Of a DNA stretch of 64,000 nt, positions 2,056-53,500 are shown piece by piece; position 1 is the stretch's first letter, and each line of letters starts with the position of its first letter. The stretch comes from an uncultured Clostridia bacterium. GTDB lineage: Bacteria > Bacillota > Clostridia > Christensenellales > Aristaeellaceae. The stretch is taken from NCBI GenBank assembly GCA_934636425.1, contig CAKUAV010000001.1, forward strand, positions 6,072-70,071, read 5' to 3'. The notes beneath the pieces are model-generated. The model was not told where the DNA came from and searched no databases. It worked only from the letters and a program-made list of their open reading frames with translations. The translations under genes were made by a program, and so were the position numbers.

Positions 2056-4971
2056 ATGCGAAAGATCTATGCGTCCTATCATCAACCGCAGTCCTATCCT
2101 GAGTATACCCGCCGCCTGATCCGCGCCACGACGCGCGACACGCTGGAGAACACCATTCAGTTCATGTCCCTGCGCGCGCTGCCGCAGAACGAGAAGGGCG
2201 AGCTCATGGAAATCGACGAGGCGCTCGATCTGTACACAAAGCGCTTTGATCTGGGCAAGGTGTTCTGGATGCAGTGCAGCACAATACACGCGCTCAATCT
2301 CCGCGAATTCCTGCAGGCCGTCCGGGAACGCAGCGGCTATGTGTTCGATCTGTGGGGCTTCGTGCCCGGCTCCTACAAGAAGGGGCTGCTCTGGGGCGAA
2401 TACGACGTGACAGAGGATAAGAACGATCTGTTCACCGGCATACTGGGCGACCGCTTCATAGGCTATGACAACGGCGAGCAGGACGGCCGCTACATTGGCT
2501 CCTACACGCCCACGCAGTGCCCCGCGCGGCAGGACAATGTGTTCCAGCAGCGCCGCTTCTATGAGTTCTTCGACGAGATGGGCAGCCAGCTTCACAACGC
2601 CACCACGGCGCTGTGCTCGCTCAACTATGTGCATTTCTTCGCCCGCGAGCAGAACTGCTTCATGCTGGGCGCGGAGACGGCGCAGGCGCTGCCCAACGCC
2701 AACCTCTGGTACGCCTACATCCGCGGCGCGGGCAAGCAGTACGGCCTTCTCTGGTTCGGCAACGCGTCGGTCTACAACCGCTTCAGCTGGAAGAGCTATG
2801 ACATCGAGAGCAACGGCGTGGATCAGGAAGGCTACAGCTACGGCCCGACCGTCGGCACCAGCCTGTCGCTGCTGCGGCGGCTGATATATGTCGAATATCT
2901 CTACAATTCCGATATGCTCGGCTTTGAATCCGGACTGGTCACGACGAAGGCGTGCATGGAAAAGGTGAACGCCGGCATTCCGCTCGAGCCGAACAAGACC
3001 AATTCCGACAAGAGCCTCTTTACCGGCGAGGACGCTGTGCTCGCGCCCATCGGTCGGATTCAGGCCGACTGCATCCGCTTCATTAAGGAGCGCGGCTATG
3101 CGGGCGTTATGGCCGTGCCCACGGCGGTTGTGCTCAATAGCGGCAACGGCTGGTGCATGCCCCGCCACCTCTACACGAGAAACGTCTATCGCAGCTGGGG
3201 TCAAATGCCCTACAAGGACTGCGATCATCAGCTGCACGCGCTCTTTACGCTGCTCTATCCGGGCTATGAGGACTCCGGCTTCTTCCTCAACGAGCGCGGC
3301 TTCCTCACGCCCACGCCCTACGGCGATCAGGCCGACGTGCTCATGACCGACGCGCGCGCCGAGACGCTTCGGCAGTACGACCTCCTGCTGATGGCCGGCT
3401 GGCAGAAGCTCGACCGCGAGCAGCTGGACAAGCTGGCCGCCTTCACCGACAACGGCGGCACAATCCTCGCCTTCGCGGGTCAGCTTGAGGACGCGCCGGA
3501 AGCGGCGGCGTTCTTCGGCGTGAACGCTCTGGGCAAGGCCTCCCTGCGCCGCGACGCGCTTGTCACAGACAGCGACGGCAAGACCCATCGCGAGCGCGCG
3601 CTTTCCGTCTACGCGGACGCCTCTCTGAGCGACGCGGACGTGCTCATGACCCTCGAGGACGGCACGCCCTTCGTCATCGCCCGCACCGCCGGAAAGGGCC
3701 GCGCGCTGCTGGTGCTCTCGCCCTACGGCCTGGATGAAACCGAAAACTCCGCGCCCGTGCGCAACATGGAGAACGTCAGCATCCCCCTGCGCCGCGATCT
3801 GCTGAAGAGCGTCAAGGCGCTGCTCACCGAGCTGATGGACGAGGAGCGGCTCGCATCCGTCGACAATCCCGCGCTGCAGACCATCGTCAACATACGAGAG
3901 GATCACACGCTGACCGTGACCGTGGTCAACAACGGCTTTGCGACGGAAAGCTACCGCATCGACTGCCTGTGCGGCAGGGAGATCAGCCGCCGCGAAATCG
4001 CCGTGCCCGATCTCGACCCCGCCACGCCCGGCTACTGGCCGATGTACACGCATCCCTATCCGCCGATGGGCGCGGTCGAAGAAGGCCGCCAGCTGATCGG
4101 CCCCGGCCAGATCGCCATGTGGGACATCGAATATGAGCCGGAGAACGTCGTATTCACGCACGAGGAGCCTATGCGCGATCTGAGCGGCAATGTCTATGTG
4201 TCGCTGCGCCCGCACGGCCTGCTCATCGAGGAGCTGCTCAAAATGCCCGCGCTCAATCAGTATTTCGCGGGCGTAAAGCTGGACGCGGCCTATGTGAGCG
4301 ATCTGAGCCTGCATCAGTGCGCTCAGGCCGGCGGCTGGCTGAAGCGGCGCGGCCTAGACGTGGTCGTCGATTTCTCCTCCGTGCTGGATCACTATCCGCA
4401 TCTGTCGCTCATACGCAACAGACCCGAGCGTCAGGACGCAAAATTCCTGTGGATAAACGACATCATGGCGAACGCTGCTGCGCTGGGCGCAAGGCGGATG
4501 CTGCTCAACCGACACCGCAACGCCGAAAACCATCTCACGCCCGACGAGGCCGCCGAGTATATGAGCGCTTCAATCGCCGCGCTCAGCGCCATGGCCGAAA
4601 AGCACGGCCTGAGCGTCATGATGACCAACGCCCTGCCCAACGCCGTCAGGGGACGCGTCGCCGATCTCAGCCGCGAAGGCTGTCCCGCCGCGGTCAATCT
4701 GGAGCACTGCCTGCTCGCTGGCGACGTCCCGGCCGGCGAAGAGCTGAAGAGCGCGCGCGCCCTGCTGCTCAGCGCGCCGCTGAAGGATGACTTTGGCCAG
4801 ATGATCGACGCGCATGCGCCGCTCCACGCCAGCCCGCTCGCCCCGCGCATCGCCGCTCTGCTGCGCGGCCTGCCGCTCGATCGATATGATTTCATCTGCC
4901 TGGACGGCGATTACACGCGCTTTGACGAGATGTATCTCGACCGGCTCTGGCTGAATGAATCCGCGGAATAA
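2056..4971 (+). CDS. large uncharacterised glycan-related protein (971 aa): unknown N-terminal catalytic-like region, GATase1/GH42M-like middle, xylose-isomerase-like TIM-barrel-like C-terminus
   Basis: RBS CAGGAGG is present. The composition looks protein-like. The middle segment (YDLLLMAGWQKLDREQLDKLAAFTDNGGTILAFAG) resembles beta-galactosidase trimerisation or ThuA-like domains. The C-terminus (LDVVVDFSS...MLLNRHRNAENHLTPDEAAEYM...HGLSVMMTNALP) resembles sugar-phosphate isomerase/epimerase TIM barrels. Function is not established. Confidence 0.85.
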   Translation: MRKIYASYHQPQSYPEYTRRLIRATTRDTLENTIQFMSLRALPQNEKGELMEIDEALDLYTKRFDLGKVFWMQCSTIHALNLREFLQAVRERSGYVFDLWGFVPGSYKKGLLWGEYDVTEDKNDLFTGILGDRFIGYDNGEQDGRYIGSYTPTQCPARQDNVFQQRRFYEFFDEMGSQLHNATTALCSLNYVHFFAREQNCFMLGAETAQALPNANLWYAYIRGAGKQYGLLWFGNASVYNRFSWKSYDIESNGVDQEGYSYGPTVGTSLSLLRRLIYVEYLYNSDMLGFESGLVTTKACMEKVNAGIPLEPNKTNSDKSLFTGEDAVLAPIGRIQADCIRFIKERGYAGVMAVPTAVVLNSGNGWCMPRHLYTRNVYRSWGQMPYKDCDHQLHALFTLLYPGYEDSGFFLNERGFLTPTPYGDQADVLMTDARAETLRQYDLLLMAGWQKLDREQLDKLAAFTDNGGTILAFAGQLEDAPEAAAFFGVNALGKASLRRDALVTDSDGKTHRERALSVYADASLSDADVLMTLEDGTPFVIARTAGKGRALLVLSPYGLDETENSAPVRNMENVSIPLRRDLLKSVKALLTELMDEERLASVDNPALQTIVNIREDHTLTVTVVNNGFATESYRIDCLCGREISRREIAVPDLDPATPGYWPMYTHPYPPMGAVEEGRQLIGPGQIAMWDIEYEPENVVFTHEEPMRDLSGNVYVSLRPHGLLIEELLKMPALNQYFAGVKLDAAYVSDLSLHQCAQAGGWLKRRGLDVVVDFSSVLDHYPHLSLIRNRPERQDAKFLWINDIMANAAALGARRMLLNRHRNAENHLTPDEAAEYMSASIAALSAMAEKHGLSVMMTNALPNAVRGRVADLSREGCPAAVNLEHCLLAGDVPAGEELKSARALLLSAPLKDDFGQMIDAHAPLHASPLAPRIAALLRGLPLDRYDFICLDGDYTRFDEMYLDRLWLNESAE

Positions 4972-5044: not shown

Positions 5045-5262
5045 GAAAGTTGGAGGGGAAACAACACGGCAAAAAGCGCTGCCCTCAGGCTCTCGAACTT
5101 TTAATCATGCCCAGCGGCGTATGCGGGACGATTTGCGCGCCCGGGAAATCGGCAAAAACTGAAAATGGTGACTGGAAGGCAAAACTGCCGACGATTCAAA
5201 TCAAAGATTTGATCCGTCGTTCATGCCGGATTGGCATTGGGCCGGTCAAACGCATTCTTCGG
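5045..5262 (-). repeat. copy of the ~200-bp dispersed intergenic element (divergent 5' half)
   Basis: The reverse complement aligns with 7483-7680 and 47082-47280. The shared core GCCGCTGGGCATGATTAAAAGTTCGAGAG is the reverse complement of 5090-5118. Upstream matches include CAGTTTTTGC and CGCAAATCGTCCCGCAT. Confidence 0.55.
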
Positions 5263-7439: not shown

Positions 7440-7482
7440 GACGCGCGGCGCACCGGAATTTCTCCCGATGCGCCGCGCGTTT
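7440..7482 (+). repeat. left copy of a 43-bp direct repeat holding a 12-bp-stem hairpin
   Basis: GACGCGCGGCGCACCGGAATTTCTCCCGATGCGCCGCGCGTTT is identical 43/43 to 7681-7723. The stem is ACGCGCGGCGCA / TGCGCCGCGCGT with a 16-nt loop. Confidence 0.95.
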
Positions 7483-7680
7483 GCCTGTCAAAAAAGGTCT
7501 TGACAAGCTGGTGAACGAGGATTCAAGCTTTCCGCCGCGTGCTGCCCTCTCCAGTTTTTGCTCTGGAAATGGGATTTTTCGCCGCAAAATGTCACCCCGC
7601 ATCATACATGCCGCTGGGTACGTTTGAAATTTGAGAGGGTTTCGGCACTCTCGAACTCTCTGAATGCTTTTCGGTACTCT
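7483..7680 (+). repeat. 198-bp dispersed intergenic element, best-preserved copy (MITE-like or sRNA-like)
   Basis: About 70% identical by eye to the reverse complement of 47082-47280. It starts ..GTCAAAAAAGGTCTTGACAAGCTGGTGAA and ends ..GCTTTTCGGTACTCT. There is an internal hairpin TTTGAGAG-N10-CTCTCGAA at 7630-7655. Confidence 0.8.
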
Positions 7681-7730
7681 GACGCGCGGCGCACCGGAAT
7701 TTCTCCCGATGCGCCGCGCGTTTTTTTGTT
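7681..7730 (+). terminator. right copy of the 43-bp repeat; canonical Rho-independent terminator
   Basis: It carries the same 12-bp stem as 7441-7480. Here the stem is followed by TTTTTTTG. Confidence 0.8.
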
Positions 7731-9440: not shown

Positions 9441-9750
9441 GCGCCTGTAACGCGCCTGCGGAAAACAACCTCATTCCCCCGCAAACAATCCATCACCCAT
9501 GAAAAGCGCTGAGAACCAGAATGCGTAACGGCACGGCGCGACTGCGCGAAAACGCCATCATCCCGCAAGCAATCCATCACCCATGAAAAGCGCCGAATTC
9601 CAGAATGCGCAACGGTACGGAACGGCGCGCCTGTGGAGAACGCCCCTATCCCTGCAAACACTCCATCGCCCATAAAAAACGCAGAATGCCGGAATGCGTA
9701 AGGCACGACGCGCCCCGCGAAAAAACGCCCTCATTCGCCGCCCGCCGTCA
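9441..9750. repeat. tandem repeat, about 3.5 units of 85-89 bp
   Basis: Units begin near 9457, 9543, 9632 and 9717. The conserved core is GCAA(A/G)CAATCCATCACCCATGAAAAGCGC...CCAGAATGCG(T/C)AACGG, and GCAAxC recurs at 9481, 9565 and 9654. Confidence 0.85.
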
Positions 9751-45408: not shown

Positions 45409-46833
45409 ATGATCTTGGATGCCGTTCCCTTGTGGCCGACGCTGATCTGGCCGCTCTGTCTGATTGCGCTCACGCTGCTGCTGACTCTGATGGAAACCGC
45501 CGCCGATTCGCTCAGCGAAGCCCGGCTTGAACATTTGGCCGACGAGGGAGAGAGCAAGGCGCGCTCCATACTCAAGCGGCTGGACGACTGCGCGGGTCTC
45601 GGCGAGGGCATACAGTGCGCCCGCCACATGACGCTGCTGCTGCTGGGCTTCCTCAGCGGCATGTACATGAGCCGCCCGCTCTCGAACGCGCTGATCGCGC
45701 TGCCCGCCATGAAGGGCGCGCCCGATGCGCTGATCCACGCGCTGTGCCTGATCGTCGTGCTGATCGTGCTCTACACGCTCGTGCGGCTGATCTGCATCGA
45801 GTGGGCGCGCCGCATCGCCAATATGCACGTCGATGCGCTGATTCTCTCGCTGTTTGAGCCGATGATGTTCGTGCGCCGGCTGTTTCGGCCGATGACCGCG
45901 CTCACCGGCGCCGCGGCCGGACTGCTGATCCGCATGAGCGGCGCCGATCCCAGACGGGCGGAGGAGAACGTCACTGAGGACGAAATCCTCGCCATGGTGG
46001 ATATGGGCGAGGAAAAGGGCGCGATCGAGAGCAGCGAAAAGGAGCTGATCGAAAACGTCCTCGAGTTCAACAACACCACCGCCGAGGACTGCATGATCCA
46101 CCGCACCGACGTGACCGCCGTGGACGTGGACACCAGCGAGGAGGAATTCGTCGATCTGGTGCGCGAAACCGGCTTTTCGCGATTCCCTGTGTACGAGGAC
46201 GACATCGACTCCATCATCGGCATACTGACCACGCGCGACTATCTGCTCAACGCGCGCCGTCCCCAGGGCGAGCGCAAGACCATACGCGAGCTGCTGCGCC
46301 CGGCCTACTTCATCCCCGAATCGGTGCGCGCCGACGTGCTCTTCCGCGAAATGCAGAGCCGCAAGAGCCACATGGCCATCGTCGTGGACGAATACGGCGG
46401 CACAAGCGGACTGATCACGCTCGAGGATCTGCTCGAGGAGCTGGTGGGCAACATCTACGACGAGTTCGACCCGCAGGCCAAGGCCGACATCATTCCCCAG
46501 AGCGACGGCACATGGCGCGTCAACGGCTCGGTCGAGCTGGAGCGGCTGTGCGAGACCATCGGCATCGAGGAGATCGAATCGGACGAATTCGACACGCTGG
46601 GCGGGCTGATCTTCAGCCAGCTGACCGCCATCCCCGAGGACGGCAGCCATCCCGAGGTGGACTGCTTCGGGCTGCATATCCGCGTGGAGGAGCTGACCGA
46701 TCACCGCGTCGAATGGGCGACCGTCTCCCGGCTGGAGGAAGACCCGGACGAGGACGACGAGAAAGACGAAAAAAGCGATAAGCCCGAGAAGAAAACCGAC
46801 AAAAAGCCTGAAAAGAACAAAAAGGACGAATGA
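45409..46833 (+). CDS. CNNM/DUF21-CBS-CorC_HlyC family (hemolysin-like) divalent-cation transport protein
   Basis: RBS TAGGAGGA is present. The architecture is an N-terminal 4-TM DUF21 domain, a CBS pair (IHRTDV...FSRFPVY... / MAIVVDEYGGTSGLITLEDLLEELVG) and a C-terminal CorC_HlyC domain. The C-terminal tail is Asp/Lys-rich. Confidence 0.9.
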   Translation: MILDAVPLWPTLIWPLCLIALTLLLTLMETAADSLSEARLEHLADEGESKARSILKRLDDCAGLGEGIQCARHMTLLLLGFLSGMYMSRPLSNALIALPAMKGAPDALIHALCLIVVLIVLYTLVRLICIEWARRIANMHVDALILSLFEPMMFVRRLFRPMTALTGAAAGLLIRMSGADPRRAEENVTEDEILAMVDMGEEKGAIESSEKELIENVLEFNNTTAEDCMIHRTDVTAVDVDTSEEEFVDLVRETGFSRFPVYEDDIDSIIGILTTRDYLLNARRPQGERKTIRELLRPAYFIPESVRADVLFREMQSRKSHMAIVVDEYGGTSGLITLEDLLEELVGNIYDEFDPQAKADIIPQSDGTWRVNGSVELERLCETIGIEEIESDEFDTLGGLIFSQLTAIPEDGSHPEVDCFGLHIRVEELTDHRVEWATVSRLEEDPDEDDEKDEKSDKPEKKTDKKPEKNKKDE

Positions 46834-46839
46834 TCCGTT

Positions 46840-46877
46840 ATCCCGCCTGACGAGCGCGCCGGGCGGGATTTTTTTAT
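46840..46877 (+). terminator. Rho-independent terminator after the CNNM gene
   Basis: Stem ATCCCGCC / GGCGGGAT is followed by TTTTTTTATTG. Confidence 0.85.
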
Positions 46878-47049: not shown

Positions 47050-47081
47050 TGTGAAAAGCAAAGCCGCGTCTCACCGCGGCA
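47050..47081 (-). terminator. hairpin plus U-tract at the 3' end of the inverted element copy (also the left copy of a 20-bp direct repeat, 47062-47081)
   Basis: Minus strand reads GCCGCG-GTGAGA-CGCGGC, followed by TTTGCTTTTCACAG. The 20-mer AGCCGCGTCTCACCGCGGCA is repeated exactly at 47281-47300. Confidence 0.7.
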
Positions 47082-47280
47082 CAGACTGCCGAAAAACCTT
47101 CGAAGAACTGAGCGGATCGAAACCCTCTCGAATTTTCAATCGTACCCGGCGGCGTGTACGGGGAATGCAGGACGATTTTTGAGGCGGAAACTCCCATTTC
47201 CAGAGTAAAAACTGGAGAGAGGGGGCACGGCAGGGAGCTTGCATACCCCTTCACCAGCTTGTTAAGACATTTTTTGTCTG
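47082..47280 (-). repeat. 199-bp dispersed intergenic element, inverted relative to the 7.5-kb copy
   Basis: The reverse complement aligns end to end with 7483-7680. Shared segments include GTCTTAACAAGCTGGTGAA, CTCCAGTTTTTACTCTGGAAATGGGA, GCCGCCGGGTACGATTGAAAATTCGAGAGGGTTTCG and TTTTCGGCAGTCTG. Confidence 0.8.
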
Positions 47281-47300
47281 AGCCGCGTCTCACCGCGGCA
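47281..47300. repeat. right copy of the 20-bp direct repeat (hairpin) flanking the element
   Basis: AGCCGCGTCTCACCGCGGCA is identical 20/20 to 47062-47081. Confidence 0.95.
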
Positions 47301-47418: not shown

Positions 47419-48498
47419 ATGAGAGACTGCACACAGTATATCCATGCCCGCCGCCCGCTCTATCACACCGCCGAGGCCATCCGCCGCGGCCACATCACAA
47501 TCGGCTTCATCGGCGGCTCTATCACCGAGCCGGTCGCCGACGGCCGCCGCTGGAGCGGCAAGATCATAGACTGGTTCGTCGCCGAATTCCCCGGCCTGAT
47601 CGTCGATGAGGAAAACGCCGCCAAGGGCGCGACCGGCTCGCTCAACGCCATACTGCGCGTCGAGGACGACATACTCGCCTATGGCTGCGATCTGGTCTTT
47701 GTCGAGACGGCGGTCAACGACGGCGAAAGGGCGTGGGGCGCGTGCCGCGAGGGCATACTGCGCAAGCTGATGAAGGACGACGTGTGCGACGTCGTATTGA
47801 CCTACACCTACTCTCAGGCCATGTACGAGACGATGCTCGCCGGCAATCTGCCCCAGACCATACTCGACTGGGAGGAGCTGGCCGAGCACTATCAGCTCAG
47901 CAGCGTCCACATGGCGCGCTACACATTCGATCTGGTGATGGACGGCTTTCTGCGCTGGGACGAATGGCTGCCCGACACGCTGCACCCCGATCACGCCGGC
48001 AGCCGTCTGTACGCCGAGCCGGTCTGCCGCCTTATTCGCCGCGAGATCGATACCGCGCGGCCCGTCAGCATACCGCTCCCCGCGCCGCTGCACGCCGACA
48101 ACTGGGAGAACGTCCACCTCCTGTCGTTTGAGCAGGTGGAGCGCATCGGCGCGTGGCGGCAGACCCACGAGCGCCGCCTGCCCTCGGTGCATCATATGCT
48201 CTGCACATCCTCGATGACCGCCAGCCTGCGCTTTGAGTTCGAGGGCACAGGGCTGCTTCTTCACCTGCTCAGCGGCGGCCTGTTTTCAGCCTACAAGATC
48301 CGCATCGACGACGGCGAATGGATCGTCAAGAACGATCCTCTGCCCGAGTGGGGCATGAATGCCACCGACTGGCTGCGCGAGGATATGCCCGTCTGCGGCC
48401 TGCCCGCCGGCCGCCACACAGCGGTCATTGCGCCGCTGTTCGCCGTGGGCGGCCGCGCGACCCGCTTCCAGCTGGGCATGATCGGCGTGATCTGCTAA
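47419..48498 (+). CDS. SGNH/GDSL hydrolase family protein with a C-terminal beta-sandwich-like domain
   Basis: RBS AAAGGAG is present. SGNH blocks are FIGGSITEP, KGATGS, ETAVNDG and DTLHPDHAG (DxxH). Confidence 0.85.
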   Translation: MRDCTQYIHARRPLYHTAEAIRRGHITIGFIGGSITEPVADGRRWSGKIIDWFVAEFPGLIVDEENAAKGATGSLNAILRVEDDILAYGCDLVFVETAVNDGERAWGACREGILRKLMKDDVCDVVLTYTYSQAMYETMLAGNLPQTILDWEELAEHYQLSSVHMARYTFDLVMDGFLRWDEWLPDTLHPDHAGSRLYAEPVCRLIRREIDTARPVSIPLPAPLHADNWENVHLLSFEQVERIGAWRQTHERRLPSVHHMLCTSSMTASLRFEFEGTGLLLHLLSGGLFSAYKIRIDDGEWIVKNDPLPEWGMNATDWLREDMPVCGLPAGRHTAVIAPLFAVGGRATRFQLGMIGVIC

Positions 48499-51981: not shown

Positions 51982-52055
51982 ATTCGGATGTTCTCCTGTT
52001 GTCCGCTGAATAATCGCGCCTGAAAAGCGCGCGGCGGCAAATCGCCGCACTTATC

Positions 52056-52293
52056 GTTCACGCGCAAAGCGCATCGCTTCCGGCATATCTCTTCCACGCG
52101 CCCGCCGCGCCATTCACGCGCAAACGCACGCTTCCGGCGCATCGCTCCCACGCGCTCGCCGCGCCGTTCACGCGCAAAGCGCACGCTTCCGGCATATCGC
52201 TTCCACGCGCCCGCCGCGCCGTTCACGCGCAAAGCGCACGCTTCCGGCATATCTCTTCCACGCGCCCGCCGCGCCGTTCACGCGCAAAACCAT
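52056..52293. repeat. tandem repeat, 4.3 units of 54-56 bp
   Basis: The unit is GTTCACGCGCAAAGCGCACGCTTCCGGCATATC(G/T)CTTCCACGCGCCCGCCGCGCC. Units start at 52056, 52112, 52166, 52221 and 52276 (the last is partial). Units 3 and 4 differ at a single base. Confidence 0.95.
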
Positions 52294-53317: not shown

Positions 53318-53500
53318 TTGCGATTGAGACAAAAAACAGCAATGCAGCGAACTCATGCGCAAAAACAGCGGCAAGCCGGTGGACAGGGAATCAAGCTCCC
53401 CCGCCGCTGCCCCACCATAAACGCCGCCGGGTACGACTGGAAATTCGAGAGATCTTTCACCCTCTCGAGCTCTCCAATATTTTTCGACAGTCGCCGCGCC
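53318..53500 (+). repeat. copy of the dispersed intergenic element with internal indels
   Basis: It shares GAGACAAAAAAC, GCAAGCCGGTGGACAGGGAATCAAGCTCCC, the core GCCGCCGGGTACGACTGGAAATTCGAGAG (53423-53451), the hairpin TCGAGAG-N10-CTCTCGA and the end TTTTCGACAGTC. It lacks the central ~60 nt found in the 7.5-kb copy. Confidence 0.65.

Follow-up and report, generated by a model that had tools for sequence, protein, structure and literature searches.

A 199-bp non-coding element in a 64-kb window of uncultured Clostridia DNA (the window being the whole stretch that was analysed) entered its site by an insertion that duplicated one pre-existing 20-bp hairpin, and the same arrangement is found at many loci and in many genomes. 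Across these loci the lengths of the duplications are bimodal, and the ends and flank geometry of the element match those of two IS1182-family elements. Because termini, end architecture and flank geometry all match in this way, the element, here called copy B, is very probably an IS1182-type MITE, i.e., a non-autonomous DNA transposon with IS1182-like ends.

Copy B and its flanking hairpins

The earlier note on this DNA had read the 199 bp, by eye, as the reverse complement of an element at 7.5 kb in the window (copy A), colinear with it and roughly 70% identical. Indeed, global alignment of the reverse complement gave a colinear match with 155/208 identical columns (74.5%), whereas shuffled controls averaged 50% and did not exceed 55%. 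The pair was recovered independently by a repeat finder (blocks of 82–91% identity) and by nhmmer, and copy B could be aligned end to end with ~255-bp copies from related genomes. Against the profile of copies A, B and C of the window, copy B had an nhmmer E-value of 9e-63, a match by construction since copy B is part of the profile.

Read on the + strand, the locus consists of the 20-mer AGCCGCGTCTCACCGCGGCA, the 199 bp starting with CAGAC and ending with GTCTG, and the 20-mer again (Table 1). As the earlier note had it, the two flanks are identical and form a hairpin, with a 6-bp GC stem and a 6-nt loop, and they are unrelated to the first locus, where an exact 43-bp repeat of another hairpin encloses copy A. 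The U-tract reported after the distal hairpin copy is there as well, as TTTGCTTTTC on the - strand with a terminator-like score, and so are the short inverted ends. The left end of copy B keeps only CAGAC and the A-run of the terminal inverted repeat, and CAGAC...GTCTG is a remnant of the terminal inverted repeat of the family.

Table 1. Copies of the element in the window and the hairpins that flank them
Feature	Position	Strand	Remarks
Degenerate element fragment, central and 3' part	5070..5187	-	nhmmer E = 1e-7; a solute-binding-protein gene lies downstream
Left copy of the 43-bp hairpin target duplication, copy A	7440..7482	+	Exact 43-bp direct repeat
Copy A, ~198 bp	7483..7680	+	Boundaries uncertain by 1-3 nt; repeat and profile searches, alignment
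Right copy of the 43-bp hairpin duplication, copy A	7681..7723	+	Followed by TTTTGTTC
Distal (right) target-hairpin copy, copy B	47062..47081	-	Followed by TTTGCTTTTC at 47052-47061; terminator-like (terminator scan)
Right end of copy B	47082..47096	-	Reads TTTTTCGGCAGTCTG, the right terminal repeat of the family
Copy B, 199-bp non-coding element (MITE, very probably)	47082..47280	-	Short family 1 form; has a single internal stem-loop module, not two
Left end of copy B	47248..47280	-	Reads CAGACAAAAAATGTCTTAACAAGCTGG, a degenerate version of the family terminal palindrome CAGCTTGTCAAAAAAGGTTTTGACAAGCTGG (alignment)
Proximal (left, in element orientation) target-hairpin copy, copy B	47281..47300	-	Reads TGCCGCGGTGAGACGCGGCT, with the CAG of the element directly after; one of two exact 20-mers in the window
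Copy C	53340..53492	+	Central stem-loop module deleted, 5' end diverged; profile search

Copy B lies in a 585-bp spacer between two + strand genes and is oriented opposite to them. The upstream gene encodes a CNNM/CorC-type transporter, ends at 46833 and has its own terminator at ~46840-46875; downstream, a GDSL-like gene begins at 47419. The G+C content of the window is 63%, and the MAGs in which related sequences were found are those of uncultured Clostridia from the human gut and rumen.

The 20-mer is found at exactly two sites in the 64-kb window. No further site was found in the window with up to 3 mismatches allowed (0.06 expected by chance), and the 20-mer was absent from 61 related loci, so it is not the common REP sequence that the earlier note had considered as a way in which its reading might fail. 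A REP/BIME-like repeat system or a CRISPR-like repeat-spacer-repeat unit would share the layout of hairpin, insert and hairpin. Here, however, the hairpins are locus-specific and unique while the insert is conserved, the reverse of REP or CRISPR logic, and a nearby Rfam CRISPR match, at 17 bits where the threshold is 37, is noise. Such a repeat system is refuted by the uniqueness of the 20-mer and by the empty site described below, and we consider it next to impossible. A REP/BIME system with a RAYT was likewise rejected, as the 20-mer is unique to this locus and a different hairpin is found at every locus.

Empty sites in related genomes

Empty sites were sought by collecting relatives of the CNNM protein of the window and comparing their contigs. 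The filled site is present in two same-strain contigs. A contig from a Hadza gut metagenome (L065) encodes a CNNM protein 97% identical to that of the window, and its spacer and the start of its GDSL gene are as in the window. At the orthologous position it has a single copy of the 20-mer, AGCCGCATCTCATCGCGACA, with 3 substitutions, and lacks the element; the window is 219 bp longer than L065, of which the element accounts for 199 bp and the duplication for 20 bp. With one 20-mer and no element in L065, copy B is therefore an insertion, and one pre-existing hairpin was duplicated when it inserted. The earlier note had also asked whether the two hairpins might predate the element: one does, as the single 20-mer of L065, but not two. 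The 3 substitutions between L065 (~3178-3197) and the window (47062-47081) all fall in the stem, and the L065 hairpin is much weaker; either this hairpin has decayed, or the insertion picked a lineage with a perfect stem.

A second pair of filled and empty sites was found in contigs L161 and L183, which are 97% identical. In L161 an insertion of 163 bp is accompanied by a duplication of 9-10 bp, CGGTATAACT, and L183 is empty. For copy A, the intergenic DNA of relatives with an 82% identical flanking protein was unalignable, and a 100% identical contig at this locus stops at the repeat. In two loci with the 82% identical solute-binding protein (L191, 2675-2690, and L192, 2999-3014), TTCTCGACAGCCTG stands directly after the stop codon and could be the solitary right end of an element.

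A dispersed superfamily with constant ends

A pattern search for the conserved core returned 61 loci, nearly all from ~8 uncultured Clostridia MAGs, which hold dozens of further copies. Many of these loci are at contig ends, as expected of a dispersed repeat. In related genomes the members of this family (family 1) are ~255 bp long with two internal stem-loop modules, compared with one in the window copies, and longer variants of 330-500 bp have extra stem-loops. One 8-kb locus (L053, MAG CAKUFI) contains 5 copies or fragments, roughly one per intergenic terminator, including a 375-bp variant with three extra stem-loops. The window itself contains 4 copies or fragments by profile search. The flanks of copy C were checked for a target duplication and no clear one was found; copy C is therefore probably an older insertion.

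The termini common to the superfamily, whose members are non-coding, 150-500 bp long and differ by 1-nt indels in the alignment, are CAGCTTGTCAAAA...(palindrome) and ...TTTTTGACAGTCTG. The left end is constant, CAGCTTGTCAAAAAAGGTTTTGACAAGCTGG, and consists of the terminal repeat and an inverted copy of it; the right end, TTTTT(C)GACAGTCTG, is constant too. As consensus terminal inverted repeats we obtained CAGCTTGTCAAAAA and CAGACTGTCAAAAA, the latter being the reverse complement of TTTTTGACAGTCTG. Scanning a metagenome collection with the terminal-palindrome pattern gave at least 120 loci, and among the matches listed were several other short families with the two constant ends in human-gut metagenomes. 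Family 2 is ~160 bp long with an unrelated interior, and family 3 is ~218 bp long and has the core GTACACGCCGCCGG in common with family 1. With its small size, terminal inverted repeats, a target-site duplication proven by an empty site, and many dispersed copies, the element has the attributes of a MITE.

Some further repeats were observed. At L158 (~880-1030), two elements adjoin one short GC hairpin from either side (TTTTTGACAGTCTG-AGGCGCCGCCT-CAGACTGTCAA), an arrangement that suggests repeated use of one hairpin as target. Between two - strand ORFs of the window, a 55-bp tandem repeat (52055-52288) has 4.3 copies with 91% matches; two near-identical strain contigs (L062 and L063) differ by exactly 55 bp between the genes flanking it, and its copy number is therefore polymorphic. 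A tandem repeat of ~89 bp with 2.9 copies and 75% matches lies at 9478-9723.

Target-site duplications fall into two size classes

The earlier note had proposed an insertion-linked process that targets and duplicates stem-loops, and had suggested a survey in which the duplicated flanks are tabulated. Our first survey of related genomes gave locus-specific hairpin duplications of 19-43 bp. In 37 of 41 elements, hairpin direct repeats of 19-49 bp adjoin both ends, and their folding energies lie between -10 and -35 kcal/mol. When 48 copies were surveyed more strictly, anchored on the element ends, hairpin duplications of 19-41 bp were seen in ~30, and ~10 had exact 7-11-bp duplications that were plain and formed no hairpin. 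The lengths are thus bimodal, hairpin-sized or ~7-11 bp. Different locus-specific hairpin duplications adjoin the ends of most copies, and together with the empty site in L065 they uphold the proposed process. Targeting of stem-loops, however, stands as a preference and not as a rule, since the 7-11-bp duplications at non-hairpin sites mean that hairpins are preferred but not obligatory.

In most hairpin cases the duplication extends 0-1 nt past the base of the stem, and the stems are 6-18 bp long. The duplicated hairpins are usually terminator-like, with an A-rich 5' flank and a T-rich 3' flank. T-runs after the right copy are only modestly commoner than A-runs before the left copy, and we accordingly make no claim of a strict orientation relative to the terminator.

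The range of duplication lengths, 7-49 bp, calls to mind a SINE-like retro-element, as variable-length duplications are typical of target-primed reverse transcription, and the interior of the element is structured as well. Yet the terminal inverted repeats match a DDE insertion-sequence family, there is no 3' tail, no reverse transcriptase was found, and the boundaries of the duplications track the stem base precisely and are not random. A retro-element is therefore a most improbable source of these copies.

Likeness to IS1182-family elements

Insertion into hairpins has been described for the IS1182 family. IS1272 and TnSha1 insert into terminator hairpins with no primary-sequence specificity and delete the stem-loop; their targets are often proven terminators and are recognised by structure (PMC4923244, PMC5678879). 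[quoted passage not shown] For ISCbo5, another member of the family, all insertion sites but one are hairpins at gene ends (PMC3098183).

We compared the termini of the element with three family members, namely ISCbo5, an IS on an Enterococcus faecium plasmid, and ISCfr1. In the Clostridium botulinum plasmid p3BKT015925, ISCbo5 (L187:35837-37201) has a transposase ORF with the Pfam domains DUF772, DDE_Tnp_1_6 and DDE_Tnp_1 and is flanked by a 29-bp hairpin direct repeat, GTAAAGATAGCACACCTTATAGGTGTGCT. Its left end, CAGGCTGTTGATAAA-cataa-TTTGTCAACAGACT, is a palindrome, and its right end is TTTTTGAACAATCTG. The E. faecium IS is flanked by a duplicated 22-bp hairpin, AATAGAGCTTTTCAGCTCTATT; its termini are CAGACTGTAGACAAA and TTTGTCTACAATCTG, with a subterminal hairpin and a T-tract on the right. 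In ISCfr1, CTGTTGAAAAA occurs close to either end. By eye, the termini of the element (CAGACTGTCGAAAAA / CAGCTTGTCAAAAA) agree with those of ISCbo5 and the E. faecium IS at 12-13/15 bases, and the right end of copy B, TTTTTCGGCAGTCTG, agrees with the left terminus of the E. faecium IS, CAGACTGTAGACAAA, at 12/15.

The likeness extends beyond base identity. The termini of the ISCbo5/ISBma2-like elements (C. botulinum group III, C. novyi) and of the E. faecium IS have, like those of the element, the form CAG(A/G/C)(C/T)TGTnnAnAAA, to which the 12-13/15 matching bases refer. As in ISCbo5, the left end is the terminal repeat plus its inverted copy; as in IS1182-family ISs, the right end abuts on a T-tract after a subterminal hairpin; and as with ISCbo5-type ISs, gene-end hairpins serve as targets. 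In both cases the direct repeat takes in the hairpin completely or almost completely, measuring 22-29 bp in ISCbo5 and the E. faecium IS and 19-49 bp in the element. ISfinder gives direct repeats of 0-60 bp for the IS1182 family. The element combines IS1182-type termini with insertion at hairpins and long, variable direct repeats. Unlike ISCbo5 and the E. faecium IS, however, it is only 150-500 bp long and has no transposase gene. As no ORF for a DDE transposase with DUF772 and DDE_Tnp_1_6 is present in the element, it is not an IS1182-family IS itself and would, judged from its sequence, at most be a non-autonomous relative. Its interior, made up of conserved stem-loop modules, bears no relation to the IS sequences compared, and its hosts are high-GC uncultured gut Clostridia in which it occurs at very high density and in which the cognate IS was not found.

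A side observation concerns ISCbo5, whose left hairpin copy (L187, 35690-35750) is truncated (29/37 bp) and without a T-tract, while its transposase gene is codirectional with an upstream C2-toxin gene. The ISCbo5 transposase could therefore be expressed by read-through from the host gene.

Other systems resemble the element in part. IS1272 and TnSha1 of staphylococci also use hairpins as targets, but IS1272 takes out the stem-loop wholly or in part without creating a duplication ('stem-loop replacing'), whereas the element duplicates the whole stem-loop. Bacterial MITEs such as RUP, Correia and MITEAba12 are likewise small, non-coding, multi-copy and intergenic, with TIRs, a target-site duplication and presence/absence polymorphism. 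Their duplications are short and of fixed length, 2-9 bp, and we know of no MITE of this type whose target duplication reaches the size of a hairpin. Class C group II introns home to terminator stem-loops and make no duplication, and Cas1-Cas2 attacks both borders of a palindromic repeat, which is thereby duplicated. Both are functional analogies only, the element having neither ribozyme nor reverse transcriptase in the former case, while in the latter no cas genes are present here and the inserted part is the conserved part.

Search for a transposase partner

The earlier note had suggested an autonomous partner sharing the CAGAC-type ends. Matching termini and duplications were indeed found in IS1182-family ISs, but the actual partner was not found. 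A TnpA-Y1 and a group II intron reverse transcriptase, which had been named as candidates, are not the right ones; a class C group II intron or another known structured RNA was also rejected, since no RNA family model in Rfam matched. With tblastn and the ISCbo5 transposase as query, no IS1182-type transposase was detected in the window and 187 collected loci, and end-pair and repeat searches of the window and these loci revealed no long element with family ends. Plasmid, phage and viral-contig collections gave no match. Among the matches listed from the terminal-palindrome scan of metagenomes (at least 120 loci) there were only short elements, and all-against-all BLAST found no multi-copy repeat of IS size. 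Candidate long end-pairs in L122 (znu operon), L136, L144 and L178 were resolved into housekeeping genes with a short element on either side. Since multi-copy ISs often drop out of MAGs, the absence of a partner is weak evidence. The apparent link to IS1182 rests on the 15-nt termini, the end architecture and the target behaviour, and not on a cognate protein.

A transposase of another DDE family that makes 8-9-bp duplications (e.g., ISL3, IS4, IS5, IS256 or IS6) could have moved the MITE, with the IS1182-like ends being convergent. The failure of tblastn to find a cognate transposase in the window and 187 loci would be compatible with this, the short duplications of 7-11 bp fit several families, and TGTnnAAAA near IS ends is not unique to IS1182. 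Nonetheless, two independent IS1182 elements share 12-13/15 terminal bases, the T-tract at the right end and whole-hairpin duplications with the element, the left-end palindrome is also present in ISCbo5, and to our knowledge hairpin-sized duplications are listed only for IS1182. We therefore regard a mover from another family as improbable.

Conserved stem-loops in the interior

The interior of the element is well conserved between species. In an alignment of 22 copies, 16/59 predicted pairs have double compensatory changes, and one internal helix switches from TTTTT/AAAAA to TCTCC/GGAGC. Such changes could reflect selection on the structure of RNA or single-stranded DNA or, equally, templated repair within palindromes. 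Folding energy is ~2 sd below that of shuffled sequence on either strand, and counts of G-U and A-C favour the forward strand weakly; neither these counts nor the folding z-scores discriminate the strand of a putative RNA. Nothing in the window reached the Rfam gathering score, and permissive searches with copies A and B and a 255-bp relative gave noise. A promoter scan found no sigma-70-like site inside copy B, and a TTGACA in the left end belongs to the terminal palindrome, so an sRNA gene with its own promoter was rejected.

These data bear on whether the element might be primarily a structured RNA gene or a 3'-UTR RNA module, with selection on the RNA, flanking hairpins that are terminators, and mobility only secondary. 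The compensatory changes in the 22 copies and the core GTACACGCCGCCGG, which is common to families with otherwise different interiors, would fit such a module, and co-transcription would occur wherever the left hairpin has lost its T-tract. However, there is neither an Rfam family match nor a promoter-like site in copy B, the folding energy is just ~2 sd below the shuffles on either strand, the strand preference in the G-U and A-C counts is weak, and compensatory-looking changes in palindromes may arise by templated repair without selection. Moreover, an RNA module leaves the target duplications and empty sites unexplained and would at best be a layer over transposition; as the primary nature of the element it is rather far-fetched. 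Selection on the interior modules as functional RNA or single-stranded DNA structure, within a transposing element, is somewhat less implausible though still unlikely; the modules are conserved, covarying and partly common to families that otherwise share only their termini. Candidate functions are a 3'-UTR module, which would share a transcript with the upstream gene after the left hairpin has lost its T-tract, and a cofactor for the transposase.

Discussion

For the IS1182-type MITE, the mover is presumably an IS1182-family DDE transposase encoded elsewhere. It would bind the terminal repeats (CAGnnTGTCnAAAA) and join the 3' ends of the element to a hairpin-forming palindrome in the target, on each strand at the 5' foot. 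In an extruded cruciform, which the geometry of the duplications suggests as the target, the two points of attack would be adjacent, although 19-49 bp apart in linear sequence, and gap repair would for this reason duplicate the whole hairpin. At a non-palindromic site, the same reaction would yield an ordinary duplication of ~8-10 bp. The product would read hairpin, element, hairpin, T-tract. As the left hairpin copy would then be without a T-tract, transcription from the left side could enter the element and stop at the right hairpin copy.

Some observations count against the IS1182-type MITE. IS1272, the best-studied member of the family, deletes rather than duplicates the hairpin; no transposase or long element with family ends was found in the window, the 187 loci or the plasmid, phage and viral collections; and the hairpin at the L065 empty site is weak, with its 3 stem substitutions. 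The interior is also more conserved than a plain deletion derivative needs and has compensatory changes in several stems, which suggests an extra function outside the MITE model.

The process itself is already known, since hairpin targeting has been published for IS1182-family elements (PMC3098183, PMC4923244, PMC5678879), and no new kind of system is revealed. What is new is the MITE superfamily in uncultured gut Clostridia, its density (the 64-kb window holds 4 copies or fragments, and the 8-kb locus L053 holds 5), and the clean two-class distribution of duplication lengths. If the interior is functional, these would be terminator-riding elements that rewire mRNA 3' ends across the genomes of uncultured gut Clostridia, and they would also provide a natural record of a DDE transposase capturing cruciform DNA in vivo.

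For this clade of Clostridia, the repeats explain many contig breaks in MAGs, and the duplicated 'terminators' beside the elements are not to be taken for regulatory architecture or sRNA genes. In addition, ~40 natural insertions in two size classes, one of ~8-10 bp and one of an exact stem-loop plus 0-1 nt, offer comparative support for cruciform-type target capture. This support concerns structure-dependent capture by IS1182-family transposases, for which the published outcome with IS1272, deletion of the hairpin, is the opposite of the duplication seen here.
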